A stretch of 64,000 bases of DNA from Candidatus Omnitrophica bacterium UBA6215. Lineage in GTDB: Bacteria > Omnitrophota > Gorgyraeia > Pluralincolimonadales > Pluralincolimonadaceae. Below, one piece after another: positions 33,910 through 55,519 of this stretch. The translations under genes were made by a program, and so were the position numbers. Position 1 is the stretch's first letter. Every line of letters begins with the position of its first letter. The DNA is taken from positions 39,291 to 103,290 of the forward strand of contig DISH01000003.1 in the NCBI GenBank assembly GCA_002421665.1, read 5' to 3'. Under the pieces are notes generated by a model. It was not told where the DNA came from. It searched no databases and worked only from the letters and a program-made list of their open reading frames with translations.

Positions 33910-34289
33910 TCTTCGGGATTAAGGATCCTTTTGAGATTAGGGTGATTCAGGAATTTTACGCCAAATAGGTCATATACCTCGCGCTCAAGCCAGTCAGCCG
34001 ATCTCCAAAACCTCTCCACGCTCTCAACGGTGAGGTCGTCGGGCAAGAGCTGTGTCTTCAATACGATACCCGCGCGTTTCTTCATCGAATAAAAATGGTA
34101 AACAAGCGTTACATTATCCTTATTGTCGACGGCCGTAAGATTATGCAGGCTGTCAAATCCTTGACCGGTCAGGCAGCGGGCCGCTTCAAGGATGCCTTCC
34201 CTGGGGACTACTATGGCCCTGGTTTTTTCTTCCAGGGATGTGTCCGGTATTTTCAATTTTATCAGGCCGAACGCCTCACCGTTTGACAC
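33879..34289 (-). CDS. nuoC: NADH-quinone oxidoreductase subunit C (30 kDa), short form.
   Basis: The '[28 protein letters not shown]' motif of the 30-kDa subunit is present. It is a separate gene from nuoD. Confidence 0.8.
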
Positions 34290-34791: not shown

Positions 34792-35138
34792 TCGAGGGCC
34801 CCTTTCTTCCAGGCGTAGACAAGACCTGCTATGAGCACGCCTATGAAGACGACCATCTCAACGAAGGCGACGAACCCGAGCTCTCGGAATATGACCGCCC
34901 AAGGGATGAGAAAGAGTATTTCAACGTCGAAGACAACGAAAATAAGTGCGATAAGGTAGTACCGGACGTTGAACTGTATCCATGATCCGCCCTTTATGAC
35001 CTCGCCGCATTCATAGCAGGAGTTCTTTTCAGGGCTTGGCGCGCGCGGGCGCAGGAACCATGAGACTGCAAGGGCCCCGGCAACGAAAATGATGCCGAAG
35101 ACCAGGAAGAGGCCAACATATCCGTAATCTGCGATCAT
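34782..35138 (-). CDS. nuoA: NADH-quinone oxidoreductase subunit A.
   Basis: 118 aa, 3 TM. First gene of the nuo cluster. Confidence 0.85.
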
Positions 35139-35251
35139 AATTAATGCGGCTCCAATGGATTGAAATGCCGGTCATTTTAATGGCTGGTTTTTTCAATTAT
35201 ACAAAAAATCCTGCCTTTATGTCAAAGGTATTAATAGCATAAGAATAATGC

Positions 35252-35279
35252 TTGACATCGCATCCTGCTGTGATACAAT
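35252..35279 (+). promoter_or_regulatory. Putative sigma70 promoter P1 of cspA (TTGACA, 16-nt spacer, TGaTACAAT extended -10).
   Basis: A perfect -35 at 35252-35257 and a TACAAT -10 with an upstream TG lie about 125 nt upstream of the cspA ATG. Confidence 0.45.
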
Positions 35280-35314
35280 TTAATCCGTAGCAACTAAAAG
35301 AGTAGCGATTGTTT

Positions 35315-35354
35315 ACCGCAACGGTTGATGATCACTGGCCTTTGCGGTTTTTTT
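35315..35354 (+). terminator. Terminator-like hairpin plus U-tract inside the cspA 5' leader. This is a possible attenuator or thermosensor element.
   Basis: ACCGCAA / TTGCGGT 7-bp stem with a 19-nt loop, followed by TTTTTTT. It is located between promoter P1 and the cspA RBS. Confidence 0.35.
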
Positions 35355-35404
35355 GTGCTCTCTGATCGTTTGCTATAATCCACAAGGAAAGGAGGCACAA
35401 ATTA

Positions 35405-35605
35405 ATGGCCAGAGGCAAGGTGAAATGGTTCAGCGACCAGAAAGGTTACGGATTCATTACCCCTGAGAACGGCAAGGACGTTTTCGTCCATCACAGCGCC
35501 ATCAAGGGTGAAGGTTATAAATCTTTGACCGAGGGACAGGAAGTCGAGTTCGATATCGAGAAGGGTCCCAAGGGTGAACAGGCGACCAACGTGGTTAAGC
35601 TCTAA
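35405..35605 (+). CDS. cspA: Cold-shock protein, CspA family.
   Basis: 66 aa with RNP1 'KGYGFI' and RNP2 'VFVHHS' motifs. It is preceded by an AAGGAGG RBS. Confidence 0.9.
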
Positions 35606-35626
35606 TTAAAAATAAACCGTCATGAC

Positions 35627-35659
35627 GGCCCGGTCCGAAAAGACCGGGCCTTGTTTTTT
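35627..35659 (+). terminator. Rho-independent terminator downstream of cspA.
   Basis: GGCCCGGTC-cgaaaa-GACCGGGCC perfect 9-bp GC-rich stem, followed by TTGTTTTTT. Confidence 0.7.
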
Positions 35660-35686
35660 ATACGGCAAAAGTGTAAAATACGGGCC

Positions 35687-36211
35687 ATGGCAAAATTCAA
35701 GGTAAAGAAGAAGACGCTTGTTTATGACGGCAGGATAGTCAGGCTCGTTGTCAGCGACGGCATCATTAGAGGAAGGCCCGCCCGCTGGGAAGTAGTCCAC
35801 CATATCGGTTCTGTCGGCATAGTCCCTTTTCTTCCCGGGGACAGGGTTGTCCTTGTCGAACAATTCCGCTATGCCGCAGGGGAGAGGCTGCTTGAGATAC
35901 CCGCCGGTACCCTCCATAAAGGCGAAGCGCCGCTTGCAGCCGCCAGGAGGGAGATACAGGAGGAGACAGGCTACGCCGCCGGAAAATTCGAGAAACTTAA
36001 CATATTCTATCCTTCTCCCGGGGTGACCGACGAATTCGTCGTGATATACAAAGCTACCGGCCTCAAGCCGTCCAGACTTCCGGCTGATTTCGATGAGGAT
36101 ATAAAAGTCAGGGTGGTAAAAATATCGGATGCCCTGAAATACGTCAGGCAGGGGAAGATAAAGGATGCCAAGACGATAATCGCGCTGTTGCTTACCTCCG
36201 GCAAGGCATGA
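35687..36211 (+). CDS. NUDIX hydrolase (ADP-ribose pyrophosphatase-like).
   Basis: Nudix box 'GTLHKGEAPLAAARREIQEETGY' (Gx5Ex7REUxEExGU). The start is chosen at 'MAKFK' after the cspA terminator. Confidence 0.8.
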   Translation: MAKFKVKKKTLVYDGRIVRLVVSDGIIRGRPARWEVVHHIGSVGIVPFLPGDRVVLVEQFRYAAGERLLEIPAGTLHKGEAPLAAARREIQEETGYAAGKFEKLNIFYPSPGVTDEFVVIYKATGLKPSRLPADFDEDIKVRVVKISDALKYVRQGKIKDAKTIIALLLTSGKA

Positions 36212-36585
36212 AGAAACAGCTTGATGTTATAGATATACTTGAAAGCGTGACCGATAAAGACCCACGCTATAAGGTCGACGCCTATTTGTTCGTCCTCAAC
36301 GGCTTGAACCACACGGTCTCCAGGCTCGAGAAGCCCCGCCATGTGAACGGCCAGGAACTTTCCGAAGGGCTGCGTATCTATGCGATAGACCAATACGGCC
36401 CGCTTGCCTTAACGGTCCTTGAGAGCTGGGGCCTGGAGAAGACATCGGACTTCGGCAATATAGTCTTTAACCTTATCGGCGTGAAGTTGCTGTCAAAGAC
36501 CGATAATGATTCGATAGATGATTTCAGCGATGTCTTCGATTTTAAGAAGGCCCTCGCCAGGACGGTGGATTATAAGCTTGAGTAA
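36208..36585 (+). CDS. Hypothetical protein (125 aa, acidic C-terminus).
   Basis: ORF with good codon usage, translationally coupled to the Nudix gene. No motif recognised. Confidence 0.4.
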   Translation: MKKQLDVIDILESVTDKDPRYKVDAYLFVLNGLNHTVSRLEKPRHVNGQELSEGLRIYAIDQYGPLALTVLESWGLEKTSDFGNIVFNLIGVKLLSKTDNDSIDDFSDVFDFKKALARTVDYKLE

Positions 36586-36618
36586 CAAAAAGTACGTGAA
36601 AAAAATTTAAGATTTTAC

Positions 36619-36650
36619 TTGACAACATAACAGTTATTATATATACTGTT
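36619..36650 (+). promoter_or_regulatory. Putative sigma70 promoter of marR (TTGACA, 17-nt spacer, TATACT) overlapped by an inverted repeat AACAGT-N10-ACTGTT. The repeat is a candidate MarR operator.
   Basis: Consensus -35 at 36619-36624 and -10 at 36642-36647. A perfect 6-bp inverted repeat lies at 36629-36634 / 36645-36650, inside an AT-rich intergenic region. Confidence 0.4.
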
Positions 36651-36682
36651 AATATATTAACAATAATAATAGGAGAAGACCC

Positions 36683-37138
36683 ATGGCGACAGATATCGAT
36701 AGACTTAATAATGACACAGTTATTAAGATCCTGCGGATCTCGGAAGCATTGGTAAAGACCGCGGATAGGTTTTTCAGTAAATACGGGGTTACTACGACCC
36801 AATATGATGTCCTAGTTATAGTTAATTATTCTGAAAGCAGAATAACTCAGAGCGAGCTTGGAGAGCGCCGTGTAGTTTCGCGCTCAAACATAACCGGGAT
36901 AGTCGACAGACTTGAGAAATTAGGTCTTATAAAAAGAGAATCCGATACGGGCGACCGGAGAATAAAACATCTTGTTGTTACAAAAAAAGGAAAAGATATT
37001 ATTGAAAAAGTCGAAGAAAAATATTTCGATAACCTAAAGCAGATCCTTTGGTTTCTTGATGAAAAGGATAAAGCCGGGATCTTAGAAATAATTGGAAAAA
37101 TAGAAAAGAGCTTGAGGAGAGCCGAAGATATATTATAG
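36683..37138 (+). CDS. MarR-family transcriptional regulator.
   Basis: 151 aa with a winged helix: 'TTTQYDVLVIVNYSESRITQSELGERRVVSRSNITGIVDRLEKLGLIKRESDTGDRRIKHLVVTKKG'. Confidence 0.8.
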   Translation: MATDIDRLNNDTVIKILRISEALVKTADRFFSKYGVTTTQYDVLVIVNYSESRITQSELGERRVVSRSNITGIVDRLEKLGLIKRESDTGDRRIKHLVVTKKGKDIIEKVEEKYFDNLKQILWFLDEKDKAGILEIIGKIEKSLRRAEDIL

Positions 37139-37199
37139 CATTTTTGGAGTTATAAAATATTCGCCGTTAATTTGGCTTATATCAATTTGGTAAAGAAAA

Positions 37200-37946
37200 A
37201 TGAAAAATTCTATTATTCAAAAGAGACTATTTGCAAGCGACGGTATCGAGATAGCCGTTGAACATTTCAAGGATGGGCATGATTCGGTTGTTGTTATCTG
37301 TCCCGGTTTTTTCAACAGCAAGAAGAATTCGGTAATACGCAGGGCGATAGATATTGTCGGGGACTCGCACGATGTTATAATATTCGATTTCCGCGGTCAC
37401 GGAGAGAGCGGTGGCAAATTTACCTGGACGGCGAAGGAACCGCTGGATCTCAAGGCTGTCCTTGATTACGCGGCCGGTTGCGGTTACAAGAAAATCGGAC
37501 TTATGGGATTTTCCCTTGGTGCCGCGGTTTCCGTAATCGTAGCTCCGGAAAGGCCGGAAATAAAGAGCATGGTCCTGATAAGCGCCCCTTACAGTTTTTG
37601 GGACATCAATTTTAACTTCTGGCAGCCGGAGATGTTCTCAGACCTTAAGGCAAATATGGAATGCAGTTGGGAAGGCAAAGGAGCAAAGATGGACCATGTT
37701 TTCATGGAAAAGAACAAGCCCATAGATAGAATTTCGGCGATAAAGGGCGCCGCGATACTTCTTATACACGGCGCGAAAGACTGGGTGATCAAGGATTATC
37801 ATTCGAAAAAGCTCTTCAATTCCGCTGCCGTATATGAGAAGAGACTGGAGATCTTTAACGACGGGCTCCACGCCGAGAGACTTATCGAGCAATACCCCGA
37901 TAGGATGAAGGACCTTGTTTCCGGCTGGTTCAGGGATACCCTATAA
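37200..37946 (+). CDS. Alpha/beta-fold hydrolase (dienelactone hydrolase / S9-like).
   Basis: GxSxG nucleophile elbow 'GFSLGAAV'. The 'HGAKD' region suggests a catalytic His/Asp. Confidence 0.7.
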   Translation: MKNSIIQKRLFASDGIEIAVEHFKDGHDSVVVICPGFFNSKKNSVIRRAIDIVGDSHDVIIFDFRGHGESGGKFTWTAKEPLDLKAVLDYAAGCGYKKIGLMGFSLGAAVSVIVAPERPEIKSMVLISAPYSFWDINFNFWQPEMFSDLKANMECSWEGKGAKMDHVFMEKNKPIDRISAIKGAAILLIHGAKDWVIKDYHSKKLFNSAAVYEKRLEIFNDGLHAERLIEQYPDRMKDLVSGWFRDTL

Positions 37947-37960
37947 TAAGGAGAACGGTT

Positions 37961-38698
37961 ATGAAATGGTTATTTATGTCATTGACACAATTGGCCGCGT
38001 CAGTAACTATGTACCTGATAGGTACTGTGTTCTTCGGGGTAGCCCTTATCCCGGGGGTAGCTATCTTTTTCAGCGCGCTGGAACATTCCCAGGGCCTTCC
38101 CGTTTTAGCCAGGTATGCCGTGCTCGGCCTTTCGCTCGCGGGAGGTTATTTCCTCTTCGGACTTACGCTCATATTCCTGGTAGGCATGGTTCGCATGGTG
38201 CTTCGCATACGCCTGAAGGAGGGCAATCACCCGATCTTCTCGGCGGAAGCCTTCAAGTGGGCATTTGTAAGCGCCCTATACCTGCTGGTCAATTTTACGT
38301 TCATAGATTTTATCCTGCTTACGCCGTTCTCTAACATATTTTTCAGGATGCTTGGCGTAAAACTCGGCAAGAACGTCCAGATCAATTCCAAGTTCATCTT
38401 CGACGCTACACTGCTCGAGATCGGGGACAATACGGTCGTAGGCGGCGGCGCAATAATCATCGGCCATATTGTAGAGCGCGGCACCTTGAAACTCAGGAAG
38501 GTCAGGATAGGCAAGAACGTTACCATAGGCTCGCATTCAACCGTGATGCCGGGCTGCGAAATAGGCGATAACGCCATAATAGGCGCGAGCGCCGTATTGC
38601 GCAAGGGAACCAAAGTTGAACCCAGGGACATCTATTATGGTATACCGGCCGAATCGGTAAAGAACAGACATAAAGGAGAAAGAGATGCCCAGGCCTGA
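37961..38698 (+). CDS. Membrane-anchored hexapeptide-repeat (left-handed beta-helix) acyltransferase.
   Basis: About 4 N-terminal TM helices followed by LbH repeats ('IGDNTVVGGGAIIIGH...IGKNVTIGSHSTVMPGCEIGDNAIIGASAVL'). Confidence 0.6.
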   Translation: MKWLFMSLTQLAASVTMYLIGTVFFGVALIPGVAIFFSALEHSQGLPVLARYAVLGLSLAGGYFLFGLTLIFLVGMVRMVLRIRLKEGNHPIFSAEAFKWAFVSALYLLVNFTFIDFILLTPFSNIFFRMLGVKLGKNVQINSKFIFDATLLEIGDNTVVGGGAIIIGHIVERGTLKLRKVRIGKNVTIGSHSTVMPGCEIGDNAIIGASAVLRKGTKVEPRDIYYGIPAESVKNRHKGERDAQA

Positions 38699-41312
38699 TT
38701 TCGATAATTTTTCCATACATGAGCTGATGGAATCCATAAACAAACGGTGGTTCTCTAAAACCGCTTTGCAGATAAAGACGAGAGAAGGCTGGAACAGGCT
38801 TTCCTATGTTCCGCTGGGAGAACGGGCGGTTGATATATCTTCGAGTCTTCTTAAGCTTGGAATGGAAAAGGGAGACCGCGCCGCGGTCCTGTCGGAATCA
38901 AGGCCGGAATGGGGTGCCGCGCTTTTTGGAATAATATCCTGCGGCGGTATCGTTGTACCTATGGATGTCAAACTCAGCGAGAAGGAGATGGCTTTCATCC
39001 TCAAGGACAGCGGGGCCAGGTTCATCTTTGTCTCGGAGAAGTATCTTCCCGTGGTCGACAGTATAAAAGCAGCCCTCCCGGAACTAAGGCATATTTTTGC
39101 CATTGATGATACCGACAGGCAGGACCTTATAAAGACTAAAGAACTCAAGATGAGACCGGGTGAAAAGAAATACCTCCCCCTTACCATGGATGACACCGCC
39201 GTCATAGTTTATACTTCCGGTACTACGGGAGTGGCGAAGGGTGTCGAGATAACTTATAAGAACCTGATATTCCAGGCCCGCGAGCTCAACAGGCTTGTCC
39301 GTTATAACGAGTCCGACAATTTCCTTTCAATGCTTCCGCTTAACCATATGCTTGAGTTGACCGGAGGGTTCCTGTCACCGCTATATGTTGGTGCTACCGT
39401 GACGTATTGCGACAGCCTTAAACCGTCGAATATCATGGCCATGATGGCCGAGACGCGTACGACAGCCATGATAACGGTCCCTCTCATACTTAAAATGTTC
39501 CACGACGGCATAATGAAGAAGGCGCAGTCCCGGCCGTTCGTTAGCAGGAAGGCGTTCTTTACCTGCCTGCATCTGTGCAGGTTCCTGCTCAGGTTCAGGG
39601 TAAAGGCCGGCAGGTTATTCTTCGGCCGAATACACAGGCAATTCGGCGGCCGGTTGAGATGTTTTGTTTCGGGAGGCGCCCCCCTTGATACCACCGTAGA
39701 GATGGATTTTAACGCCATGGGTTTTACCATATTGCAGGGTTACGGCCTTACCGAGACCTCGCCTGTCATCGCAGTGAACACTTTTGAGGAATTGAAGTAC
39801 GGCTCTGTAGGCAAGCCCCTGCCGGGAGTCGAGGTTAAGCTCATAAGGCCTGATGGCACCTCGGGGGACGAAGGCGAGATAGTCACGCGCGGCGATCATG
39901 TCATGAAGGGGTATTTCAGGAACCCCGAGAAAACCGCCGAAGTAATCAAGGACGGATGGCTCTATACCGGGGATATCGGTAAATTTGATAAAGACGGTTT
40001 TCTTTACATAACCGGTCGCATCAGGAACCTTATTGTCCTTGGCGGCGGAAAGAAAGTCTTTCCCGAGGAGATAGAGGAAGTGATGTCGGAGAGCCCTTAT
40101 ATTAAGGAAATATGCGTCCTCGGCAGGAAAGCGCAATCCGGGCTTAAGGCCGGCACCGAGGAAGTATTTGCCGTGATCGTCCCGAACCTAGAGATGTTCA
40201 AGGCGGGCGCAAAAGGCGACGAAGAAGCAGCAAGAAAAAAGATAAGCGAAGAGATCCTGCGGCTTGGCTGCAACCTCGCCGAATACAAGAAGATAGCAGG
40301 TTTTATGCTCTATTTCGATGAGCTGCCTAAGACCTCGACAAGGAAGGTCAAGAGGGCGGAGGTGGGGAAGATGCTGGAAGAGACCGGCGATAACCCTAAT
40401 CCCGTTAGCGCTATCGAGGCCCAATTAGGGAAAAGGATGGATATCTCCGGCAATCTTTCCTCGCCCCTGTCCGATATAGGTATAGATTCCATGGAAAAAG
40501 TCGAGATAGTTTGTGCGTTAGAGAGAGAGTATAATTGCACTATACCGGAGGAAGAATGGCAAAAGGCAATTTCGTTAAGTGACCTTATCCGGCTGGCTTT
40601 TGCAAACAAGGGTTTAAAAGGCAGAAATACCGGTGATGGCAATCCTGCGGCAGAAGCAAGGACAGTACGTATCCGGTCGAGGATTTTTCTGCCGAGCAGG
40701 CTACTTTTTGCATTGATCCTCAAAATATTTTTTAGGACCTACCTTAAGGTCAGGGTTAAGGGAAAGGAAAATTTGCCTGCAAAGGGTCCGTTTATACTAG
40801 CGGCCAACCATTCGAGCCATCTTGACCAGCCTCTTTTATTCAACTTGTTTTCGATGGCAAGAATCAAGGACGTGTATTCTCCCGCGGCGGCGGATTATTT
40901 TTATCGCAATATAATCGTGCGCATGTTTGTTGCTATATCATTGAACGCTTTCCCGTTCGAAAGAGAAGGTAATTTTACGAAGGGCTTGAAGATCTGCAAA
41001 GAATTGATTAATATGGACAAATCGTTAATACTATTTCCCGAAGGAACGAGATCCCTTGACGGTAAAATCGGTAATTTTAGGCCGGGAGTAGGCTTGCTTT
41101 CGATCGAATCCGGCGTTCCAGTTATTCCAGTTTATATTAAAGGCGCCCACCAGGCCCTTAGCAAGGGGCGCTTATTTATTAAGCCGGGAACCGTTGAAAT
41201 GATTATTGGTTCTCCCGTTAGTCCTGAGGGGATAGAAGATAACTATAATGGCTATAGGGTATTTGCCGGGACGCTAAAAACGAAGGTAGAAGAATTAAGC
41301 CGGGAGCATTAA
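38685..41312 (+). CDS. Tri-domain fatty acyl-AMP ligase / acyl carrier protein / lysophospholipid (PlsC-type) acyltransferase fusion. It is ElbD-like but lacks a reductase domain.
   Basis: AMP-binding motif 'YTSGTTGVAKGV'. ACP phosphopantetheine site 'LSDIGIDSMEKVEIV'. LPLAT motifs 'AANHSSHLD' (HX4D) and 'FPEGTRS'. Confidence 0.75.
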   Translation: MPRPDFDNFSIHELMESINKRWFSKTALQIKTREGWNRLSYVPLGERAVDISSSLLKLGMEKGDRAAVLSESRPEWGAALFGIISCGGIVVPMDVKLSEKEMAFILKDSGARFIFVSEKYLPVVDSIKAALPELRHIFAIDDTDRQDLIKTKELKMRPGEKKYLPLTMDDTAVIVYTSGTTGVAKGVEITYKNLIFQARELNRLVRYNESDNFLSMLPLNHMLELTGGFLSPLYVGATVTYCDSLKPSNIMAMMAETRTTAMITVPLILKMFHDGIMKKAQSRPFVSRKAFFTCLHLCRFLLRFRVKAGRLFFGRIHRQFGGRLRCFVSGGAPLDTTVEMDFNAMGFTILQGYGLTETSPVIAVNTFEELKYGSVGKPLPGVEVKLIRPDGTSGDEGEIVTRGDHVMKGYFRNPEKTAEVIKDGWLYTGDIGKFDKDGFLYITGRIRNLIVLGGGKKVFPEEIEEVMSESPYIKEICVLGRKAQSGLKAGTEEVFAVIVPNLEMFKAGAKGDEEAARKKISEEILRLGCNLAEYKKIAGFMLYFDELPKTSTRKVKRAEVGKMLEETGDNPNPVSAIEAQLGKRMDISGNLSSPLSDIGIDSMEKVEIVCALEREYNCTIPEEEWQKAISLSDLIRLAFANKGLKGRNTGDGNPAAEARTVRIRSRIFLPSRLLFALILKIFFRTYLKVRVKGKENLPAKGPFILAANHSSHLDQPLLFNLFSMARIKDVYSPAAADYFYRNIIVRMFVAISLNAFPFEREGNFTKGLKICKELINMDKSLILFPEGTRSLDGKIGNFRPGVGLLSIESGVPVIPVYIKGAHQALSKGRLFIKPGTVEMIIGSPVSPEGIEDNYNGYRVFAGTLKTKVEELSREH

Positions 41313-41328
41313 AAAGAGGAAAAATAAA

Positions 41329-41946
41329 ATGCCGCTTCCTTCAGTTTATGATTTTAAACCGCGCTTTCAAAGATTATTGCATCCGGTCTCGGATTGGCTG
41401 GCAAAAAAGCGCGTAACCGCAAATATGGTTACATATTCCGCCTTATTTGGTTCAATGTTAGTTGGAGCAGGAATAGCGATATTCGGGCCGCGTTCAATCC
41501 GCGTCCTTTTGGTACTGCCTGTTTGGTTATTGATCAGGATGGCTTTGAACGCGATTGACGGGATGATGGCACGCGAATATAAGATGGTCTCGAATTTCGG
41601 GTTTGTATTAAATGAAGCAGGGGACGTATTATCCGATGTCTTTTTGTATCTTCCGCTTGCTTTCTTGGCCAAAGATGCATTATTACCCGTTTATGTTTTT
41701 TGTATCGGAGCAATATTGACTGAATTCTGCGGGATTATTCCGAAGACGCTCGGTTTTGGCAGGCGCTACGACGGGCCGATGGGAAAGAGCGACAGGGCTT
41801 TTTGGATAGGCTTACTTTCTATCGTCGCATCGGTATACCCCATGACAATAATATGGTGGAAATATGTATTTATTGTTATGGCATTGATGGAGATAGTTAC
41901 ATGCATAAAGAGAATAAATAACGGGTTGAAGGAGGAGAGCAGATGA
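41329..41946 (+). CDS. CDP-alcohol phosphatidyltransferase family protein.
   Basis: Signature 'DGMMAREYKMVSNFGFVLNEAGDVLSD' (D-G-x2-A-R-x8-G-x3-D-x3-D). Multi-TM. Confidence 0.7.
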   Translation: MPLPSVYDFKPRFQRLLHPVSDWLAKKRVTANMVTYSALFGSMLVGAGIAIFGPRSIRVLLVLPVWLLIRMALNAIDGMMAREYKMVSNFGFVLNEAGDVLSDVFLYLPLAFLAKDALLPVYVFCIGAILTEFCGIIPKTLGFGRRYDGPMGKSDRAFWIGLLSIVASVYPMTIIWWKYVFIVMALMEIVTCIKRINNGLKEESR

Positions 41947-42893
41947 TCGACTGGATCGCCGGAGTCTCACCCACAGGAAAAGGCATATTACTTGTCTTGG
42001 CTTTTCTTGCGTTAATAAGCTTTTTGGTATGGATCCTTGCCATGTCAAAAAGAGACAGCAATGAACTGGTTGCCAGGACAAGATCGTGGTGGGTTATGGC
42101 GGCGATTTTTATGATAGCAGTTGTTTCCGGGAACAGGCACTTTTCCGTAATGTTCTTCTGCTTTTTAAGTTTGTGGGCTACAAAAGAATATCTTTCGGTT
42201 GTAGATATCCCAATCTGGCACAGACCGGTCTTGATCTGGAGCTATGTTATAATAGTGATGCAGTATTATTGGATCGCTATTGATTGGTATGGCATGTTTC
42301 TGGTATTCATTCCCATATTCGGGTTCCTGTTTATTTCAACAAGGGTAATGTTGACCAACGAGCCGGATTATTTTCTGGGTTCATCGGCAAAGATATTATG
42401 GGGTCTTCTCGCTTTTGGACTTGGGCTTAGTCACCTTGGCTACCTTATTAATATACCCGGTTACCATGGTTTGCGAATTGACGGAAGGTCTTTACTGCTT
42501 TTTCTTGTCGTGACGACGGAATTTAACGATGTTGCCCAATATTTTTGGGGCAAACTTTTCGGAAAGCATAAGATCCTCCCGGTTATCAGTCCGAAAAAGA
42601 CCTGGGAAGGGTTTATCGGCGGGGTCGTTACCGCCATAGCTGTTTGCTTTCTTTTTAAGTTTTTGACCCCCTTTAAAGCAGTTTATGAGATAGTTTTTGT
42701 GTCCTTAGCCATTTCGATCAGCGGGTTTTTTGGGGATGTCGTGATGTCGGCTGTAAAGAGAGATATGAGCGTGAAGGATTTTGGAACCGCAATACCAGGG
42801 CACGGGGGTATTTTAGACCGGCTGGATTCAATATCCTTTACAGCCCCGATATTCTTCCATATTATACGTTATTGGTATTGGCCGTCTTGCTGA
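41943..42893 (+). CDS. CTP-dependent lipid cytidylyltransferase of the CdsA/CarS family (phosphatidate cytidylyltransferase-like).
   Basis: 'SPKKTWEGFIGGV' matches the CdsA signature (SPxKTxEG). Multi-TM. It overlaps the preceding gene by 4 nt. Confidence 0.7.
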   Translation: MIDWIAGVSPTGKGILLVLAFLALISFLVWILAMSKRDSNELVARTRSWWVMAAIFMIAVVSGNRHFSVMFFCFLSLWATKEYLSVVDIPIWHRPVLIWSYVIIVMQYYWIAIDWYGMFLVFIPIFGFLFISTRVMLTNEPDYFLGSSAKILWGLLAFGLGLSHLGYLINIPGYHGLRIDGRSLLLFLVVTTEFNDVAQYFWGKLFGKHKILPVISPKKTWEGFIGGVVTAIAVCFLFKFLTPFKAVYEIVFVSLAISISGFFGDVVMSAVKRDMSVKDFGTAIPGHGGILDRLDSISFTAPIFFHIIRYWYWPSC

Positions 42894-42913
42894 GACGGCC
42901 GCGGAGAAAGAAG

Positions 42914-44395
42914 ATGATTAAAGATGAGTTTTTGTTGTCTAGTGTAGGGGACAGGGAGGCCGCATGCGCGGTCGCGCGGAAGTCGGCGATAAATATCCCG
43001 GCTTATAGGGAGTATCTAAGGAGAAATCAGTTTTCCGGCAAGATATCGCGTTCAAATTTTGAAGAGCTCCCCCTTACGGATAAAGAAAATTACCTTATGA
43101 AAGCCCCGTATTTTTCATTATTGCCGCCGGAGAATTTGGATGATGTACACTTTGTGTTTAAAAGCTCGGGTTCGTCAGGTAAGTCTTTCTATTGGCCTCA
43201 ACTAAAGCAGCAATACAAATTATTTGACCTGCTGTTTGAAGATACCCTTAGCAAGAATTTTTCAATCCGCAAGAAAAGGACCGCGATAATCGTCGGGTTA
43301 TCATTGGGGAGCTGGATCGGCGGCGACCTTATTTCGTGGGCCGCGAAGAACGTTGCGTTGCGTTCGAATTACTCCCTTACTGTCTTCAGTCCCGGGAACC
43401 AGCATGAAGAGATACTCGAGATAATTAACGGAATAAACAGGAAGGTTGACCAGATAATACTTTTTGTATGTCCTTCTACGATTGGACATCTTGCCTTGCT
43501 TGCGGAAGAGAAAAATTTTTCTGGCATATTTAACAAGTTGCGATTTCTGGTTATTGGAGAGCCATTCAGCGAAAATTTTAGATTACGTCTTCGGGCAAAG
43601 TGCAAAGTAAAGCCTCCGGAAGTTGTCCTGACGTCCGTATACGGGTCTGCCGATACGGGGATAATAGGGATCGAATCAAATGCTGTCGCATTCTTCAGGG
43701 AGCTTCTATCGAGATACGGGCAATTGCGCAGGTATTACGGTTTTGAGAATTCTTTGCCTAATTTTTTCAACCTCTCCGTAAAAGAGGCTTATATTGAAAT
43801 GGTAAAAGGAGAGCTGGTTTTTACGGCTTGGCAAGGGTTACCGCTTATGCGGTATAATCTGCACGATAACGGCAGCCTCATCGATTGGAACACCGTAAAA
43901 ACGGCGTTAAAAGACATTAATCTCGACGGAGAGTCCGAGAAATTAAAGAACCATATAATCAAGGATAGATCAAATCCTATTGTTATCGCCGTAGGCGGAC
44001 GAAGCGACGGCACTATATATTTATGCGGTACCAACATTTCAGAATCAATGCTTAGCAATGCCATAAACGACAAATCGTTGCAAAAGACCGTAACGGGGCA
44101 TTTTTATGTAAGCGTCTTGGAACGTAATGGCAGGCAGCAGTTGAAATGGGAAATAGAGCTTAAGCCCGGGATTCGTCCTGATAAAAAGACCGAAAGCGTT
44201 ATCTATGCTAAGCTGATTGAATTGCTGGGAAAGCTCCAGCCGGAGTTTATGGCCGATTACAATAGCATATATTCAAAATGGGACGATAACGAATCTGCGA
44301 GGATATTCCAATTTAAATTTTATCCTTGGCCGCAGTTATCAAGAAGACCTGATTCAGCGAAACACAGGATTATTGCATTGACAGAGGATAAATAA
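42914..44395 (+). CDS. PaaK-like / GH3-like adenylate-forming enzyme (phenylacetate-CoA ligase / F390 synthetase family), divergent.
   Basis: 'PLTDKENYL' and the P-loop-like 'FKSSGSSGKSFYW' are present. Start chosen at 'MIKDEF', after the CdsA-like stop. Confidence 0.6.
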   Translation: MIKDEFLLSSVGDREAACAVARKSAINIPAYREYLRRNQFSGKISRSNFEELPLTDKENYLMKAPYFSLLPPENLDDVHFVFKSSGSSGKSFYWPQLKQQYKLFDLLFEDTLSKNFSIRKKRTAIIVGLSLGSWIGGDLISWAAKNVALRSNYSLTVFSPGNQHEEILEIINGINRKVDQIILFVCPSTIGHLALLAEEKNFSGIFNKLRFLVIGEPFSENFRLRLRAKCKVKPPEVVLTSVYGSADTGIIGIESNAVAFFRELLSRYGQLRRYYGFENSLPNFFNLSVKEAYIEMVKGELVFTAWQGLPLMRYNLHDNGSLIDWNTVKTALKDINLDGESEKLKNHIIKDRSNPIVIAVGGRSDGTIYLCGTNISESMLSNAINDKSLQKTVTGHFYVSVLERNGRQQLKWEIELKPGIRPDKKTESVIYAKLIELLGKLQPEFMADYNSIYSKWDDNESARIFQFKFYPWPQLSRRPDSAKHRIIALTEDK

Positions 44396-44396
44396 T

Positions 44397-44993
44397 ATGA
44401 AAAGCAAAGGAATCGGGATATTTGAAAGGGTTTTTTCGTCGCGAGTTTCCTTAATCATATCGTTTTTATGGGGCTTCGCGGAGGCGACCTTATTTTTTAT
44501 TATTCCCGATGTTTTTTTAGGAGCGGTAGCTTTATTTTCGCCAATGTGTGGAATATTGTGCTGTATTATGAGTATCCTGGGGGCTATGCTTGGCGGAGGC
44601 CTTATGTATCTTTTATCTTGCAGGATCCCTCAAACTATGCTTGCCTTGCTAACAAAAGTTCCGGGAATTACAGATTCTATGATAACGCAGGTGGGTATCA
44701 ATTACAAGATGTATGGCCTTAAGTCCATTTTTTTGGCCCCGTGGGCCGGAGTTCCTTACAAGATTTACGCCGTTCAAGCCGGTATTCATGGTATAGACCG
44801 TACGGCTTTTATTTTGGCCACTATTCCGGCCCGTTTAGAGCGGTTTATTTTGGTTATTGTGGTCATGATGTTTCTGGGTTATCGATTTAGAAGGTCTGTT
44901 TTGCGCAGGCCCGGATATTGGATGACCGCGTACGCTGTTTTCTGGATAGCGTGCTACGTGGCATATGCAATTTATTTAAATGGCAGGACTTAA
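44397..44993 (+). CDS. Hypothetical integral membrane protein (5-6 TM) embedded in the lipid cluster.
   Basis: Hydrophobic helices throughout. It starts 1 nt after the preceding stop. Confidence 0.4.
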   Translation: MKSKGIGIFERVFSSRVSLIISFLWGFAEATLFFIIPDVFLGAVALFSPMCGILCCIMSILGAMLGGGLMYLLSCRIPQTMLALLTKVPGITDSMITQVGINYKMYGLKSIFLAPWAGVPYKIYAVQAGIHGIDRTAFILATIPARLERFILVIVVMMFLGYRFRRSVLRRPGYWMTAYAVFWIACYVAYAIYLNGRT

Positions 44994-45010
44994 TTGAATA
45001 TTGGAAATCA

Positions 45011-46324
45011 ATGCGTTCACTAAACTTTTCTGAATCGGTTATGTTAGGCTTACGCTTTTATCCTGCAATACGCAGCATAAGCCGTATGCCATTTGCTTCC
45101 AGGGATTCCATCGAAGGATATCAGCTGTCCAGGATTAAAAAACTTGTTACATTTGCTTACGATAATGTGCCATTTTACAGGAAGAAATATGATGAAGCGG
45201 GTATCCGTCCCGGAGACATAAGGACATTTCATGATTTTAAACGCTTACCGACGGTGACAAAAAAGGATATTATAGAAAATTATCCGCATAACATACTTGC
45301 TTCCGGTACCGATCTAAACCGTTGCATAATATCCAGGAGTTCAGGTTCTTCCGGAGCCATTGTAAATGTTGTCTATGGAACAGGGGCCCTTATCGAATAC
45401 ATATTGGCAGGTTTTAGGATTTATTCTATGGTGATGGATTACAAGCCTTGGCATAAACAGGTTTATATCTATACTTCTCCGTACCCGGTTAACGGGGTAT
45501 TTGGCGCTTATCGTTTATATTTTATACCGACAGTCAACAAGGTTAATGATACGATAGCTGAGCTAAGGAGGATCAGGCCGGATCTTTTGGTTTGTTATCC
45601 GTCCCACTTGCGTCAATTGAGCCACAGCATTTCTCGCGAAGACCTAAAGTTGATAAAACCTCTTGCTATATCAGTGAATTCTGAAATGTCAACTCAGGGG
45701 GAAAGGGATGAACTCGCCGGTTTTTTTGGGTGCGGGGTTTATGATGAATATTCAACCGAGGAATTGACGAGGGTTGCTTCGCAGTGTAAGGCTAAAAATT
45801 ATCATATATTTGAGGATATTAATTATATTGAAATATTGAATGATCGGGGGGCGGATGCAAAAGATGGGGAAGTCGGAGAGATAGTAGGGACAAATCTGCA
45901 TAATTTTACCATGCCCTTTATAAGATACAAGCAGTCCGATATGGCATCCGTATCTTCTGGGGCCTGTTCATGCGGAAGAAACTTTAAGTTATTAAACGGG
46001 TTAAAGGGCAGAAAAAACGATGAATTTATTCTGCCCGGAGGAAAAACCCTTTCTTCCGGGTTTCTGCTGGATGCTTCTTATAATTTGATCCTTGAATTTG
46101 AGAATGCAATAAAAGATTATTGTATTATTCAAGAATCGAGGAATGATATAGTAATGGAGATTATCGCAGGGGATAGCTATTCGGAAGAAAAAAGGGTGCG
46201 GATGGAAGACGCTCTCAGTAAGATAATAGGCGAAGGAGTCGCCGTTAAGGTTGCAAGGGTAGAAGAGCTTTACAAGACAAAATCAGGCAAGCAAAATCCA
46301 ATAATTTCTAAAGTCTCCAGATAA
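45011..46324 (+). CDS. PaaK-like adenylate-forming enzyme (phenylacetate-CoA ligase / CapK / F390 synthetase family).
   Basis: 'FHDFKRLPTVTKKDIIENYP' and 'SRSSGSSGAIVNV' are PaaK-family N-domain motifs. Start chosen at 'MRSLNF'. Confidence 0.7.
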   Translation: MRSLNFSESVMLGLRFYPAIRSISRMPFASRDSIEGYQLSRIKKLVTFAYDNVPFYRKKYDEAGIRPGDIRTFHDFKRLPTVTKKDIIENYPHNILASGTDLNRCIISRSSGSSGAIVNVVYGTGALIEYILAGFRIYSMVMDYKPWHKQVYIYTSPYPVNGVFGAYRLYFIPTVNKVNDTIAELRRIRPDLLVCYPSHLRQLSHSISREDLKLIKPLAISVNSEMSTQGERDELAGFFGCGVYDEYSTEELTRVASQCKAKNYHIFEDINYIEILNDRGADAKDGEVGEIVGTNLHNFTMPFIRYKQSDMASVSSGACSCGRNFKLLNGLKGRKNDEFILPGGKTLSSGFLLDASYNLILEFENAIKDYCIIQESRNDIVMEIIAGDSYSEEKRVRMEDALSKIIGEGVAVKVARVEELYKTKSGKQNPIISKVSR

Positions 46325-46357
46325 CGATATATCCGAATTAGCAGAAAGAAATCGTTC

Positions 46358-49300
46358 ATGAAAACTTGCGGTATCTGCGTCGGGGCATCCAACCTGACGT
46401 CGGTGGAGTTGCACAAGGACAAGGAAGGCCTGCGTGTCGGCAGGGTTATTAGTTTGCCGCACGAGGGAAATATATTCGGCTCGCTGGAACAGGCCGTGCG
46501 CAGGGCGCAGGAGGATGGCTACGGGAGTATCGCCGTGACCGGGCGCAAGGTAGGCGCCTCAATCTCGCTGCCGAGATTATCGGAACCGGAAGCGGTAGAG
46601 GAGGCCCTCAAGTTCCTGAACGCCGGTAACAGGAAAAGATACGATGCGGTAGTGAGCGTCGGCGCGGAACTTTTCATAGCTTATCTGCTGGACAGGGAGG
46701 GCAATATCTCCGGGGTCAGGACGCTTAACAAATGCGCGTCCGGGACCGGGGAATTCTTCATGCAGCAGCTCAGGAGGATGAATATATCCCTGGACGATGT
46801 CGTCAAGCTCGCCTCGTCAGAAAAATCATACAGGCTTTCGAGCAGGTGCTCGGTCTTTTGTAAAAGCGACTGTACCCACGCCCTTAACAAGGGCCAGGAT
46901 ATAAGCGAGATTCTTTCCGGTCTCTGCGAAATGATGTCCAGAAAGGTCATGGAACTTCTGGTCAACCTCCCAAAAGAGAATGTCATGCTCATAGGAGGGG
47001 TTGCCCTTAACCCCCGTGTGGTTAATTTTCTCAGGAAGGACATCCGTTCCGTACATGTCCCTAAAGAAGCCGCTTATTTCGAGGCGCTTGGCGCAGCATT
47101 GTGGGCGATGGAACATAATACCGATACGACGAACACGAAACTGCTGCAGGACAAACGCCATCCGTCGAGATTCTCGAACCTGCCTCCGCTTAAGTCCGCT
47201 CTCCCGCTGGTTGATTTCAAGGGCGCGTGGGAAAAGAAGGAATTTTCCGAAGGAGACGTATGCATAATCGGATTGGATGTGGGGTCAACGACGACGAAAG
47301 CCGTCTTGATGAGGGAGCGCGACGATGCCGTTATCGATTCTATATATCTCAGGACCAACGGCAACCCAGTTGAGGCTTCCAGGAATTGTTACAGGGCCCT
47401 GCAGAAAAATCTTAAGAAGGACGTAAAGATAACAGGCATAGGAGTCACCGGTTCAGGCAGGCATATAGCTGCCCTGCACGCCATGACGGACGGCGTGATA
47501 AATGAGATCATCGCCCACGCGCGCGCCGCGGCGTATTTCGACCCCGAGGTTGATACGATATTCGAGATAGGCGGCCAGGACGCGAAATATACGCATATAG
47601 AGAATATGGTAGCCTGCGATTACGCGATGAACGAGGCTTGTTCGGCCGGTACGGGCTCATTCCTTGAGGAGTCATGCAAAGAGACCCTCGGGGTGGAATT
47701 AAAAGACATTGAACCTCAGGCGATGAAAGGCGAGAACCCGCCCAACTTCAATGACCAGTGCGCCGCTTTTATAAGCAGCGATATCAAGACCGCCTCATAC
47801 GAGGGGCTCAAGAAAGAGGATATCGTCGCCGGGCTCGTATATTCCATCTGCATGAACTACAGTAACCGCGTAAAAGGAAACAGGCTTGTAGGCGACAAAG
47901 TGTTGATGCAAGGCGGGGTCTGCTACAACAAGGCGGTTCCCTTTGCTATGGCTTCTCTCTTGGGGAAAAAGATAGTGGTTCCTCCGGAGCCCGGCCTCAT
48001 GGGGGCCTTCGGCGTAGCGCTTGAGGTCAAGGACAAGATAAAGAACGGCCTGCTCAAAAGAGGCGAATACCGGCTTGCCGATCTTATAGGGAGAGAAGTT
48101 AAATACTGTGACAGCTTCAGGTGTAAGGGCGGCGCCGAGAAATGCGATCGGGGGTGCAGTATCCTGCGCATAGAGATAGAGGGTAAGATATATCTTTTCG
48201 GAGGTTCATGCAACAGGTATTACAATATCAACCATTCGGTAGCGGTAGAGGACGGCTTGCTAAATCTTGTCAAAGTGCGCCAAGAACAGCTTTTTAACGT
48301 GGGAGGGGCGCCGGTACCGCGTCCGGGCGCCAAGAGCGTAGGTATCAGCAAATCGTTCCTGTCGCATACTTTCTTCCCGCTGTACCACGATTTCTTCTCG
48401 GCCCTTGGGATGAAGGTCGTGGTTTCCGATACCGTTACGGATTACGGCATTCAGCACAAAAGGGCGGCTTTTTGTTACCCGGCCGAAATAGCCCACGGAA
48501 TGTTCCACAACCTCATCGAGAAAGAGCTTGATTATATATTCCTGCCCCAGGTGCTTGAGATAAAATCCAAGAGGGCGCCGCAGTCAAGGAAAGAACAGCA
48601 GTCCACGTGCGTCATCCTGCAAAGCGAGCCGTATTACCTGCGCGATACGTTCAAGAAAGCGAATAAAGGAAAGCTACTGATACCGGTGGTTGATTTTTCA
48701 AATGGTATACGGAAGGCTCAGGATACTTTTGTCGAGATGGCCGTAAAAATGAGTTTCAACGGCGGGGACGCGGCAACGGCTTACAAGGCCGCGTGCAGGA
48801 AACAGGAGGATTTTACCTCCAGGATGAAACAATACGGCAGGGGATGTCTCGAAGAACTCAGAAAGGACCCGTCAAGGACAGCGGTAGTCCTCCTGGGCAG
48901 GCCGTATAACAGTTTCGCGGCCGAAGCGAACATGGCGATACCGGACAAGTTTTCTTCCCGCGGGGTTACCATAATACCGTTTGACTGCCTTCCTTATGAA
49001 GGCGAATCCGATGACAGGAACATGTATTGGGCGAGCGGCCAGATGATACTTAAGGCCGCGAGGTTCGTAAAGAAGCACCCGCAGCTATACGCCGTTTTCG
49101 TTACTAATTTCAGTTGCGGCCCGGATTCCTTTATCGTGGGACAGGTAAGGGATATGATGGACGAAAAACCAATGCTTATCCTCGAGATAGACAGCCATAC
49201 CGCGGATGCCGGGGTCAATACCAGGATAGAAGCGTTCCTCGATATTGTGGAAAGGTCGAGGCGGGTGGCAGGCATCCCGCAAAAAGCCGCGACGCATTTC

Positions 49301-50644
49301 ATTCCGGCGCGCTGCATAAGCCACAAGAAGAGGTTATGGATAATCTCCTCCGAAGGGGAACGGCTTAAGATAAACGATAAGAAGGTCAAATTATTGATAC
49401 CTCCTATGGGCAAGATGGGCCCGGAAGCGCTCGCGGCGGTCTTTAAGACCGCGGGGATAAACGCGGTGCCGCTCGAGCCGTCGGACGGTGTATCCCTTAA
49501 GCACGGCAGGTCGAATACGACCTGTAAGGAATGCCTGCCGCTCATACTCAGCACGGGGAGCCTTATGAAGTACCTTGAGCGGGACAAGAGCGGGGACGTC
49601 CTTGTGTATTTCATGCCTTCTACCGGAGGCAATTGCAGGTTCGGACAGTATAGCGTATTCTTCAATAATCTAATCAGGAAGAAGCGCATCAGGAACCTCG
49701 CCGTATATTCAATGGATACCCAGAACAGCTACCTGGGCATGGGGAACGCTTTTAATATACTGGTCCTGAAGACCGCGCTTATATACGACGCGATGTATGA
49801 CATAAAGAACGCCTTGAAAGCGCTGGCGAAGGACCGTCAGGAGGCCCTTGGAATATTCGAGGAAGAATGGCATTCCATACTCGCGTGCATAGCCGGCGGG
49901 GGCAAAGGGCTTTACCGGGTGCTCGGCAAGTCCATGGACAGGCTCAGGAATGTGCCTTTAAAGAGGGCGTTCGCCGAGGCGAATAAGGTAGCCATAATGG
50001 GCGAGATATACGTCAGGCGCGATGATTATTGCTGCAATCCGCTTATCGACAGGCTCGCCCAGAAAGAGATAGTGGCCAAGACCGCGCCTATGCTCGAATG
50101 GTTCTATTATGTCGACTACCTCGTCAAGAACAACCTTGTCGAGGCGGATCTGGGAGTATCGGGCAGGGTCGAGTTCTTCATAAAGACGTTTTTGCAGAGC
50201 AGTTATGAGAGGAAGATAAAGGGCATATTGGAGCGTTCCGGGCTTTATGAGAACGAAGAGATAAACATCAGAAAGATCATGGATACCGGAAAAAAGTTTT
50301 TTGACGAGCAGCTTACCGGCGAGTCGATAGTAGTCGTGGGTTCTGCGATGAACGAGATAGCCGAGCATGTCTCAGGGGTTATAAACGTGGGCCCGTTCGC
50401 GTGCCTACCTACCAGGATAATAGAATCCATACTAAACGGTAATATGAATATGGCTTCCAAGAGGAGGTTGTCCGGGAAGGATCTTGAGCACCTTAAGGGG
50501 ACGGAGGACCTTCCTTTTCTTTCGGTCGAGATTGACGGGGCGCCCTTCCCGCCGCTGATCGAGGCCAAGATAGAGGCCTTTTGCCTGCAGAGCAAGCGCC
50601 TTCATGCCAAAATGTCTTATCTTAATTTACGCCATAAAAAATAA
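46358..50644 (+). CDS. 1428-aa fusion of two tandem BadF/BadG/BcrA/HgdC-type activase ATPase domains with a 2-hydroxyacyl-CoA dehydratase (HgdAB/DUF2229)-like C-terminal region. It is a candidate fused plasmalogen-synthase-like (PlsA/PlsR family) enzyme.
   Basis: Two actin-fold activase signatures ('CGICVGASNLTS' and 'CIIGLDVGSTTTKAVL...IFEIGGQDAKY'). A Cys cluster 'CDSFRCKGGAEKCDRGC' is present. The long C-terminal region has HAD-component-like blocks ('LEIDSHTADAGVNTRIEAF'). Confidence 0.7.
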   Translation: MKTCGICVGASNLTSVELHKDKEGLRVGRVISLPHEGNIFGSLEQAVRRAQEDGYGSIAVTGRKVGASISLPRLSEPEAVEEALKFLNAGNRKRYDAVVSVGAELFIAYLLDREGNISGVRTLNKCASGTGEFFMQQLRRMNISLDDVVKLASSEKSYRLSSRCSVFCKSDCTHALNKGQDISEILSGLCEMMSRKVMELLVNLPKENVMLIGGVALNPRVVNFLRKDIRSVHVPKEAAYFEALGAALWAMEHNTDTTNTKLLQDKRHPSRFSNLPPLKSALPLVDFKGAWEKKEFSEGDVCIIGLDVGSTTTKAVLMRERDDAVIDSIYLRTNGNPVEASRNCYRALQKNLKKDVKITGIGVTGSGRHIAALHAMTDGVINEIIAHARAAAYFDPEVDTIFEIGGQDAKYTHIENMVACDYAMNEACSAGTGSFLEESCKETLGVELKDIEPQAMKGENPPNFNDQCAAFISSDIKTASYEGLKKEDIVAGLVYSICMNYSNRVKGNRLVGDKVLMQGGVCYNKAVPFAMASLLGKKIVVPPEPGLMGAFGVALEVKDKIKNGLLKRGEYRLADLIGREVKYCDSFRCKGGAEKCDRGCSILRIEIEGKIYLFGGSCNRYYNINHSVAVEDGLLNLVKVRQEQLFNVGGAPVPRPGAKSVGISKSFLSHTFFPLYHDFFSALGMKVVVSDTVTDYGIQHKRAAFCYPAEIAHGMFHNLIEKELDYIFLPQVLEIKSKRAPQSRKEQQSTCVILQSEPYYLRDTFKKANKGKLLIPVVDFSNGIRKAQDTFVEMAVKMSFNGGDAATAYKAACRKQEDFTSRMKQYGRGCLEELRKDPSRTAVVLLGRPYNSFAAEANMAIPDKFSSRGVTIIPFDCLPYEGESDDRNMYWASGQMILKAARFVKKHPQLYAVFVTNFSCGPDSFIVGQVRDMMDEKPMLILEIDSHTADAGVNTRIEAFLDIVERSRRVAGIPQKAATHFIPARCISHKKRLWIISSEGERLKINDKKVKLLIPPMGKMGPEALAAVFKTAGINAVPLEPSDGVSLKHGRSNTTCKECLPLILSTGSLMKYLERDKSGDVLVYFMPSTGGNCRFGQYSVFFNNLIRKKRIRNLAVYSMDTQNSYLGMGNAFNILVLKTALIYDAMYDIKNALKALAKDRQEALGIFEEEWHSILACIAGGGKGLYRVLGKSMDRLRNVPLKRAFAEANKVAIMGEIYVRRDDYCCNPLIDRLAQKEIVAKTAPMLEWFYYVDYLVKNNLVEADLGVSGRVEFFIKTFLQSSYERKIKGILERSGLYENEEINIRKIMDTGKKFFDEQLTGESIVVVGSAMNEIAEHVSGVINVGPFACLPTRIIESILNGNMNMASKRRLSGKDLEHLKGTEDLPFLSVEIDGAPFPPLIEAKIEAFCLQSKRLHAKMSYLNLRHKK

Positions 50645-55500: not shown

Positions 55501-55519
55501 AGCCTATATAATAAAAGAG

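Follow-up and report, generated by a model that had tools for sequence, protein, structure and literature searches.

This study concerns a putative lipid operon in a 64,000-nucleotide stretch of DNA from Candidatus Omnitrophica bacterium UBA6215 (GenBank assembly GCA_002421665.1, contig DISH01000003.1, positions 39,291 to 103,290 of the forward strand), the whole of which is called the window here. Ten genes lie between window positions 36683 and 50644, all on the + strand and tightly packed or overlapping, with intergenic gaps of -14 to +61 bp. A first-pass annotation made from the sequence alone had described a co-directional gene cluster downstream of a MarR regulator, predicted to build an unusual, possibly ether- or plasmalogen-type, phospholipid. 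The layout was confirmed, with the correction that nine genes follow the MarR gene and that the ten include it. We found that the operon is a three-part mosaic composed of a fixed left arm (the genes for the MarR-family regulator, a hydrolase and a hexapeptide acyltransferase, and the ligase domain of a fusion protein), an exchangeable middle, and a fixed right arm, the gene for a PlsA/Ger-family protein.

The first gene (36683-37138) encodes a MarR-family regulator (Pfam MarR_2, 59.5 bits) and has a low GC content of 38%. It is followed by genes for an alpha/beta hydrolase (37200-37946; Pfam Hydrolase_4 and Abhydrolase_1), a membrane-anchored hexapeptide-repeat acyltransferase (37961-38698; Hexapep, 51 bits) and an 875-aa fusion of a ligase, an acyl carrier protein (ACP) and an acyltransferase (38685-41312; AMP-binding, PP-binding and Acyltransferase). 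Next come genes for a CDP-alcohol phosphatidyltransferase-like membrane protein (41329-41946), a CdsA paralogue of the CTP:phosphatidate cytidylyltransferase type (41943-42893), the predicted adenylate-forming ligase PaaK-like A (PaaK-A, 42914-44395), a 198-aa polytopic membrane protein that may be VTT/DedA-like (44397-44993) and a second adenylate-forming ligase, PaaK-like B (PaaK-B, 45011-46324). The starts of the two PaaK genes, 42914 and 45011, are those chosen by gene callers and not those of the longest open reading frames (ORFs). The last gene (46358-50644) encodes the 1428-aa PlsA/Ger-family protein. Searches of Pfam and NCBIfam bore out the domains that had been named in the first-pass annotation, CDP-OH_P_transf only at 21 bits against a cut-off of 22. 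The exact proteins of the operon are present on 19 metagenomic contigs from three sources, the longest of which is about 163 kb.

The mosaic structure is seen both in the base composition and in a natural swap. The exchangeable cassette, which runs on the + strand from the ACP to PaaK-B, occupies 40364-46342 (5,979 bp). GC drops from about 50-52% to 43% over 40.3-46.3 kb, and GC at third codon positions is 0.39-0.49 there as against 0.56-0.66 in the flanking genes; the Ger gene has a genome-like GC. Contig L046, which comes from another sample, matches window 33977-40363 at 99.2% nucleotide identity and window 46343-47934 at 99.7%, and between them window 40364-46342 is replaced by 7.9 kb of other DNA (L046:6388-14321). 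This DNA encodes three B12-binding radical-SAM proteins, a 140-aa protein, a GNAT-like protein, a 239-aa protein and a GH3-family adenylating enzyme. The left junction is located directly after the PKTSTRKVKR codons that close the adenylation domain, and the right junction inside the ribosome-binding region of the Ger gene. The fixed left arm ends with the FadD-like adenylation (AMP-binding) domain of the fusion (38685-40363, +), and the ACP and the LPLAT/PlsC-type acyltransferase domain that are fused to it in frame (40364-41312, +) belong to the cassette. Distant Omnitrophota, at about 75% nucleotide identity, drop out of the alignment at both junction points. An assembly chimera was ruled out for L046, because the window arrangement occurs on the 19 contigs from three sources and contig L049, at 75% identity, carries a cassette of the L046 type. 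A mobile-element origin was also rejected: no tRNA genes and no Rfam families were found, no repeats were seen at the junctions, and the breakpoints lie in coding or ribosome-binding sequence.

Other cassettes occupy the same site in relatives. The ligase protein was found at 80 metagenomic loci, which were annotated by tblastn and Pfam. Co-localisation of the lipid genes in relatives, on which the first-pass prediction depended, was found within Omnitrophota, where the full ten-gene order is retained at 81% and 61% PaaK-A identity. Of the 27 Omnitrophota loci with enough sequence, 14 have a Ger gene at a distance of 2.7-7.9 kb downstream from the ligase orthologue, among them loci with differing downstream flanks. 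L042 has an ACP-acyltransferase and a different CDP-alcohol transferase/CdsA pair (29-30% identity to that of the window) directly adjoining Ger. L044, L055, L056 and L092 add a diacylglycerol (DAG)-kinase-like fusion and a methyltransferase to the L042-type set and have a different downstream flank, despite which the ligase-ACP-acyltransferase, CDP-alcohol transferase and CdsA genes of L044 adjoin Ger. The middles of L043 and L054 contain LGT-like, PEMT-like and radical-SAM genes, that of L048 a fatty-acyl reductase (FAR) and a canonical PssA-like transferase, that of L063 an HMG-CoA-reductase-like protein and a DUF3419 (BtaA-like) protein, and that of L058 a CdsA with a VTT protein; in L047 the cassette and Ger are both missing. 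Nearly all genes in the alternative cassettes are lipid enzymes. We met no description of a Ger-terminated cassette locus in the literature, though no search was aimed at such a locus.

The genes of the window cassette are also found far outside Omnitrophota. A genome scan with PaaK-A gave 32 loci, in Planctomycetota, Verrucomicrobiota, Kiritimatiellota, Lentisphaerota, Acidobacteriota, Elusimicrobiota, Margulisbacteria, Bdellovibrionota, Chlamydiota and Cyanobacteria. About a dozen of them hold a full set composed of the CDP-alcohol transferase, the CdsA paralogue, a standalone LPLAT of about 200 aa, PaaK-A, the 198-aa membrane protein and PaaK-B, and this transferase-CdsA-PaaK-VTT-PaaK set with a standalone acyltransferase is present in at least nine other phyla. 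All-against-all clustering of the neighbouring ORFs gave no extra conserved partner, such as an inositol-phosphate synthase, beyond the six genes and an occasional PssA-like gene. The latter is located between the genes for the VTT protein and PaaK-B (L040:12079-12591, L028:1724-2278 and L008:7179-7880) and encodes a PssA/archaetidylserine-synthase-like membrane protein of 170-184 aa, in which the CDP-alcohol motif is degenerate, the second Asp being lost and the third being Glu; the gene is absent from the window. The Ger, MarR, hydrolase and hexapeptide genes were not found within 10 kb at any of the 32 loci, which rules out the ten-gene cluster as one conserved pathway. The window CdsA shares 36-45% identity with most cross-phylum copies and 26-33% with the CdsA of the other Omnitrophota cassette types examined, and it clusters with the cross-phylum copies in a neighbour-joining tree. 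This grouping and the shift in composition suggest that the five-gene set was imported into an operon of Omnitrophota. In its ACP-acyltransferase part, the fusion protein is of Omnitrophota type, sharing 54-55% identity with L040 and L042. No description of the PaaK/CdsA/CDP-alcohol transferase module was found in the papers searched. At one locus of an Acidobacteriota metagenome-assembled genome (MAG) (L017:7034-11407), two PaaK-A paralogues flank PaaK-B, and no CdsA, transferase or acyltransferase gene is nearby.

The CDP-alcohol transferase has an unusual catalytic motif. The canonical motif used for comparison was D-x2-D-G-x2-A-R-x8-G-x3-D-x3-D. The window protein reads N-x2-D-G-x2-A-R-x8-G-x3-N-E-x2-D-x3-D, with Asn in place of the first and third of the four signature Asp. 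Since the Asn/Asn motif is kept in all 15 module homologues and in two other Omnitrophota cassette types (17 of the 17 examined), the protein belongs to a variant transferase subfamily and is not decaying. A Verrucomicrobiota/Kiritimatiellota subgroup lacks the motif Arg. Among curated models, NF040950 for archaetidylinositol-phosphate synthase (AIPS) comes nearest, at 74.8 bits against a cut-off of 180; scores against the AIPS and phosphatidylinositol-phosphate synthase (PIPS) models are 40-91 bits with cut-offs of 170-180, so that these mark the nearest family only. A polyol phosphate is our best guess for the acceptor. In a JGI contig from the same organism, a length difference of about 10 bp breaks the transferase gene into ORFs of 145 and 34 aa (L002:12645-13272), and nuoH is split too; this is either an assembly error or a disrupted allele. 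The CdsA paralogue matches CTP_transf_1 over its full length at 215 bits and has an intact signature, SxVKRx4KDxGx2IPGHGGxLDRxD, which fits the PROSITE pattern for the CdsA C-terminus, K-R...K-D...H-G-G-x-D-R-x-D. It does not reach the equivalog cut-off for the E. coli-type CdsA (94 against 385 bits) and is therefore called a paralogue.

The proposal of two PaaK-type adenylating enzymes around a membrane protein held up. PaaK-B matches PDB entries 4r1l and 2y27 by sequence (E of about 1e-30), carries a precomputed PF27533 CapK_C annotation and scores 126 bits against TIGR02155, below the cut-off. PaaK-A has no match in Pfam and no sequence match in the PDB. In a Foldseek comparison its AlphaFold model (pLDDT 87) matches PaaK1 (E 7e-22), and the structural neighbours include the CoA-independent relatives NatL2, AjiA1 and ClxA, at 14-16% sequence identity. 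These three enzymes reportedly form an ester or amide directly from the adenylate, without CoA. The ANL motifs (P-loop SSGSSG, YGxxDTG/E, GRxD and the C-terminal Lys) are invariant across the PaaK-A family, which is rare and divergent (87 database clusters; 621 representatives at E<=1e-30 among 1.84 billion). Because neither PaaK-A nor PaaK-B reaches the equivalog cut-off for phenylacetate-CoA ligase, a phenylacetate substrate is not implied. The 198-aa protein between them may be VTT/DedA-like and is a candidate lipid scramblase or flippase. It has no Pfam match in the window, PF09335 included; its L040 orthologue gives a weak PF09335 match, and the L058 homologue reaches 32.4 bits on VTT_dom, short of the cut-off of 33.9.

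In the left arm, the hydrolase has an intact nucleophile elbow, GFSLG, and may be a lipase, a lysophospholipase or a thioesterase. At several more distant Omnitrophota loci, L063 among them (L063:4542-6392), the gene directly before that of the hydrolase encodes an MFS-LPLAT fusion resembling LplT plus an acyltransferase. The hexapeptide acyltransferase is hydrophobic over its N-terminal 130 or so residues. Its top NCBIfam match is TIGR02353, the membrane C-terminal domain of Pls/PosA-type synthetases (98 bits, below the cut-off), which hints that the acyl donors may be carrier-bound. In the fusion protein, the Pfam scores are 267 bits for AMP-binding, 25.6 bits for PP-binding and 84.7 bits for Acyltransferase, and the phosphopantetheine site of the ACP (GIDSM) and the acyltransferase motifs NHSSHLD and FPEGTR are intact. 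The protein had been called an ElbD-like fatty acyl-AMP ligase (FAAL)-ACP-acyltransferase. The three domains are indeed present, and the part of the claim that concerns ElbD did not stand: there is no match to a FAR/NAD_binding_4 reductase in Pfam or NCBIfam, and other domains account for all 875 residues. Since the FAR domain is missing, the fusion is not ElbD and cannot produce the aldehyde or alcohol whose supply is ascribed to ElbD. A separate FAR gene was seen only in the L048 cassette. The fusion is not Aas either, as it scores 239.7 bits against PRK08633 (cut-off 1221) and has the domains in reversed order. ElbD-like proteins without FAR have been noted and are uncharacterised (PMC9131029), and elb-like clusters of sponge symbionts have CDP-alcohol transferase and DAG kinase neighbours (bioRxiv 10.64898/2026.06.23.733905). 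No description of Ger paired with an ElbD-like protein was found in the literature.

The 1428-aa protein of the right arm contains PF01869 BcrAD_BadFG in two stretches (210 bits) and PF09989 DUF2229 (163 bits), together with a single, weak HGD-D fragment (21.1 bits against a cut-off of 28.4). PlsA/Ger proteins are defined by two activase domains followed by DUF2229 (the 'BBD' pattern), and the C-terminal region with HGD-D or an extra DUF2229 is variable (PMC13159169). By this architecture, the protein is predicted to be a PlsA/Ger-family glycerol ester reductase in the single-polypeptide form, and the earlier assignment to a double-activase family that includes PlsA/PlsR was correct. It shares 85% identity with proteins of Candidatus Omnitrophota MAGs and about 50% with those across phyla. 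The suggestion that it forms a plasmalogen, or vinyl ether, found no support. Characterised Ger enzymes produce 1-O-alkyl (saturated) products and are active only anaerobically (PMC13159169), and an alkyl and a vinyl ether appear indistinguishable from the domain pattern, the published rule being too loose.

Upstream of the MarR gene there is a promoter-like site, TTGACA-17-TATACT, with 11 of 12 consensus matches (36619-36647, +); position 36619 is also where the first-pass annotation began the cluster. The site and two overlapping palindromes, AACAGT-N10-ACTGTT and TGTTAATATATTAACA, together span 36619-36662 (+), and the palindromes may be MarR operators. No terminator-like site was found within any intergenic gap of the operon. 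The sequence supports the prediction that the ten genes form one lipid-themed transcription unit, and a MarR gene heads the locus in most Omnitrophota relatives by synteny.

Chromosomal housekeeping genes flank the operon, namely the nuo operon and the genes for ATP synthase, pyrimidine synthesis, LpxA, MazG and Era. The Ger-like gene converges on the MazG gene, and their 3' ends share 28 bp (50617-50644), an arrangement kept in L039, L040, L042 and L043. A 125-aa ORF without a family match (36208-36585) lies between a NUDIX gene and MarR in several Omnitrophota relatives, at 60-83% identity. A second lipid-related gene group is located 5-10 kb downstream of the operon (55253-61600), with a gene order conserved in L042 and L043. 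It encodes a cNMP-binding/ParA-like/patatin phospholipase fusion, a FixC/ETF-QO-like flavoprotein, an acyl-CoA ligase and a Hydrolase_4 lysophospholipase-like protein.

Our preferred model, held with moderate confidence, has three parts; in it, synthesis or remodelling of a specialised ether phospholipid is the most likely role of the MarR-controlled operon. In the left arm, the FadD-like domain would activate a free fatty acid. The hydrolase and the membrane hexapeptide acyltransferase may deacylate and re-acylate lipid; formation of lyso-acceptors, or editing of the ACP, is a possible task of the hydrolase. In the cassette, the fused ACP would carry the acyl group, the fused PlsC-type acyltransferase (LPLAT) would transfer it to a lyso-glycerophosphate, the CdsA paralogue would produce a CDP-activated lipid, and the Asn/Asn transferase would attach a head group of polyol-phosphate type. 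The PaaK pair, acting via acyl-adenylates, may decorate this head group or supply further acyl groups, possibly without CoA as in NatL2 and AjiA1, and the VTT/DedA-like protein may translocate the product across the membrane. In the right arm, the PlsA/Ger-family enzyme would, when oxygen is absent, turn the sn-1 ester into an ether by reduction.

Several points weigh against this model. The organism is uncultured, and the lipid product is predicted from genes alone. The operon contains no glycerol-3-phosphate acyltransferase and no gene for synthesis of the head-group alcohol, so the claim that every step is supplied was wrong. The transferase lacks two signature Asp residues and misses the Pfam gathering score and the NCBIfam cut-offs, which leaves its activity and acceptor uncertain, and the VTT/DedA assignment is weak for the window protein itself. 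PaaK-A stands alone at 13 of the scanned loci. Since at least 12 cross-phylum module loci have no Ger within 10 kb, the PaaK cassette does not need Ger. Ger is also located beside cassettes without phospholipid genes (L043 and L046) and could act on bulk membrane lipid. A dedicated specialised-lipid system is supported, and one linked to Ger is plausible; the ten genes are not one conserved unit, the middle six kb being swappable and compositionally foreign.

One rival explanation is that the genes are neighbours and not partners: Ger would be a housekeeping ether-lipid enzyme acting on bulk phospholipid, the gap between the ligase and Ger would be a recombination hot spot in which unrelated accessory cassettes settle, and the product of the PaaK cassette would not be an ether lipid. 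Ger has a genome-like GC, is found at about 50% identity across phyla in thousands of genomes and stays put whichever cassette is present, and outside Omnitrophota the PaaK module is never near it. However, only 33 bp without a terminator-like site separate PaaK-B from Ger, Ger adjoins a lipid cassette in L044 though the downstream flank differs, L047 has neither cassette nor Ger, and the cassettes are lipid-themed. We regard mere neighbourhood as rather unlikely. Lipid salvage seems less probable again. By this explanation, an Aas/LplT-like system would import lysolipids or free fatty acids, perhaps obtained from prey or a host, and would re-acylate and re-head them to give phospholipids of the cell itself instead of synthesising a new lipid. 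A predatory or parasitic way of life has been predicted for Omnitrophota (PMC10066038), the ligase, ACP and LPLAT of the fusion equal the domain content of Aas (at a PRK08633 score far below the cut-off), and an MFS-LPLAT fusion is encoded just upstream in relatives (L063). A hydrolase gene in the operon and the patatin and lysophospholipase-like genes 5-10 kb downstream would also suit such a role. However, the domain order is opposite to that of Aas with the ACP in cis, and salvage leaves the dedicated CdsA, the two PaaK ligases and the strain-level cassette diversity unexplained. Omnitrophota genomes are reported to be biosynthetically near-complete, and fatty-acid auxotrophy as a motive for salvage is unsupported by the published genome survey, in which lipids are not discussed (PMC10066038). 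Salvage also overlaps the synthesis or remodelling of an ether phospholipid and does not exclude it.

The product might also not be a membrane lipid at all. A soluble phosphodiester, such as a solute of the di-inositol-phosphate type, or a small-molecule conjugate built by the PaaK enzymes would fit with a transferase that is nearest the AIPS/PIPS/DIPPS group, with the natural-product enzymes NatL2, AjiA1 and ClxA as structural neighbours of PaaK-A, and with the GH3 and B12-radical-SAM genes of alternative cassettes. However, the partner CdsA is an integral-membrane protein with the full phosphatidate cytidylyltransferase signature and not a soluble cytidylyltransferase, and an LPLAT acyltransferase is always in the module. 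For these reasons a non-lipid product is the least likely of the rival explanations, and we think it very improbable.

The cassette architecture and the uncharacterised cross-phylum module are a more interesting outcome than the pathway that was originally claimed. Replacement of a cassette between 99%-identical flanks suggests that the structure of membrane lipids is under diversifying selection in this presumably predatory or parasitic phylum. Tentatively, and with more doubt than we attach to the ether phospholipid itself, it is possible that the site is a strain-variable lipid-cassette site, the membrane-lipid counterpart of an O-antigen locus, at which ultra-small and probably host-associated Omnitrophota swap the ether lipid that they display, and that the window cassette is an undescribed cross-phylum pathway to a new class of head-group-acylated phospholipids. 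The rare six-gene phospholipid module with its unusual catalytic motif is a testable object in Planctomycetota, Verrucomicrobiota, Acidobacteriota and other phyla. The locus also bears on environmental surveys. Single marker genes (Ger, ElbD and Mss) currently serve to trace bacterial ether lipids in metagenomes, along with the part that these lipids play in the "lipid divide" and in climate proxies based on branched glycerol dialkyl glycerol tetraethers (GDGTs). Among Black Sea Omnitrophota MAGs, 93 of 267 were scored as ElbD-positive (PMC11868695). Because homology screens would count a reductase-less ElbD-like protein as ElbD, such marker counts may misassign pathways.

The locus can be compared with several known systems. 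Like O-antigen and capsule loci, it has conserved arms, a compositionally distinct middle and allelic cassettes at the strain level; its cargo is membrane-lipid enzymes and not glycosyltransferases, so the resemblance is an analogy only. The fusion protein resembles ElbD of the Myxococcus xanthus elb cluster in having a ligase, an ACP and an AGPAT-type acyltransferase within one protein, and differs from it in the absence of the FAR domain. With Aas/LplT of E. coli it shares the coupling of a fatty-acid-activating ligase to an LPLAT acyltransferase, and in relatives the MFS-LPLAT fusion upstream, whereas the domain order is reversed, an ACP is fused and the score is 240 against 1221 bits. With the CdsA and AIPS/PIPS pathway the locus shares the combination of an enzyme for CDP activation and a small AIPS/PIPS-group CDP-alcohol transferase; here the transferase carries Asn/Asn and no inositol-phosphate synthase is linked. 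The two PaaK enzymes have the fold and the ANL motifs of PaaK-family ligases, including NatL2, AjiA1 and ClxA, and unlike those they flank a VTT-like membrane protein inside a phospholipid module. The closest counterparts of the right arm are PlsA/PlsR of Clostridium perfringens, the single-gene PlsA of Enterococcus, and Ger of Thermotoga maritima and Desulfatibacillum alkenivorans, whose reported architecture (PMC13159169, PMC12838417) the window protein matches with two BcrAD_BadFG domains and DUF2229, and a possible HGD-D remnant, in one polypeptide of about 1430 aa. Those genes are standalone or form a two-gene operon, whereas the gene in the window terminates an operon of lipid-building genes.

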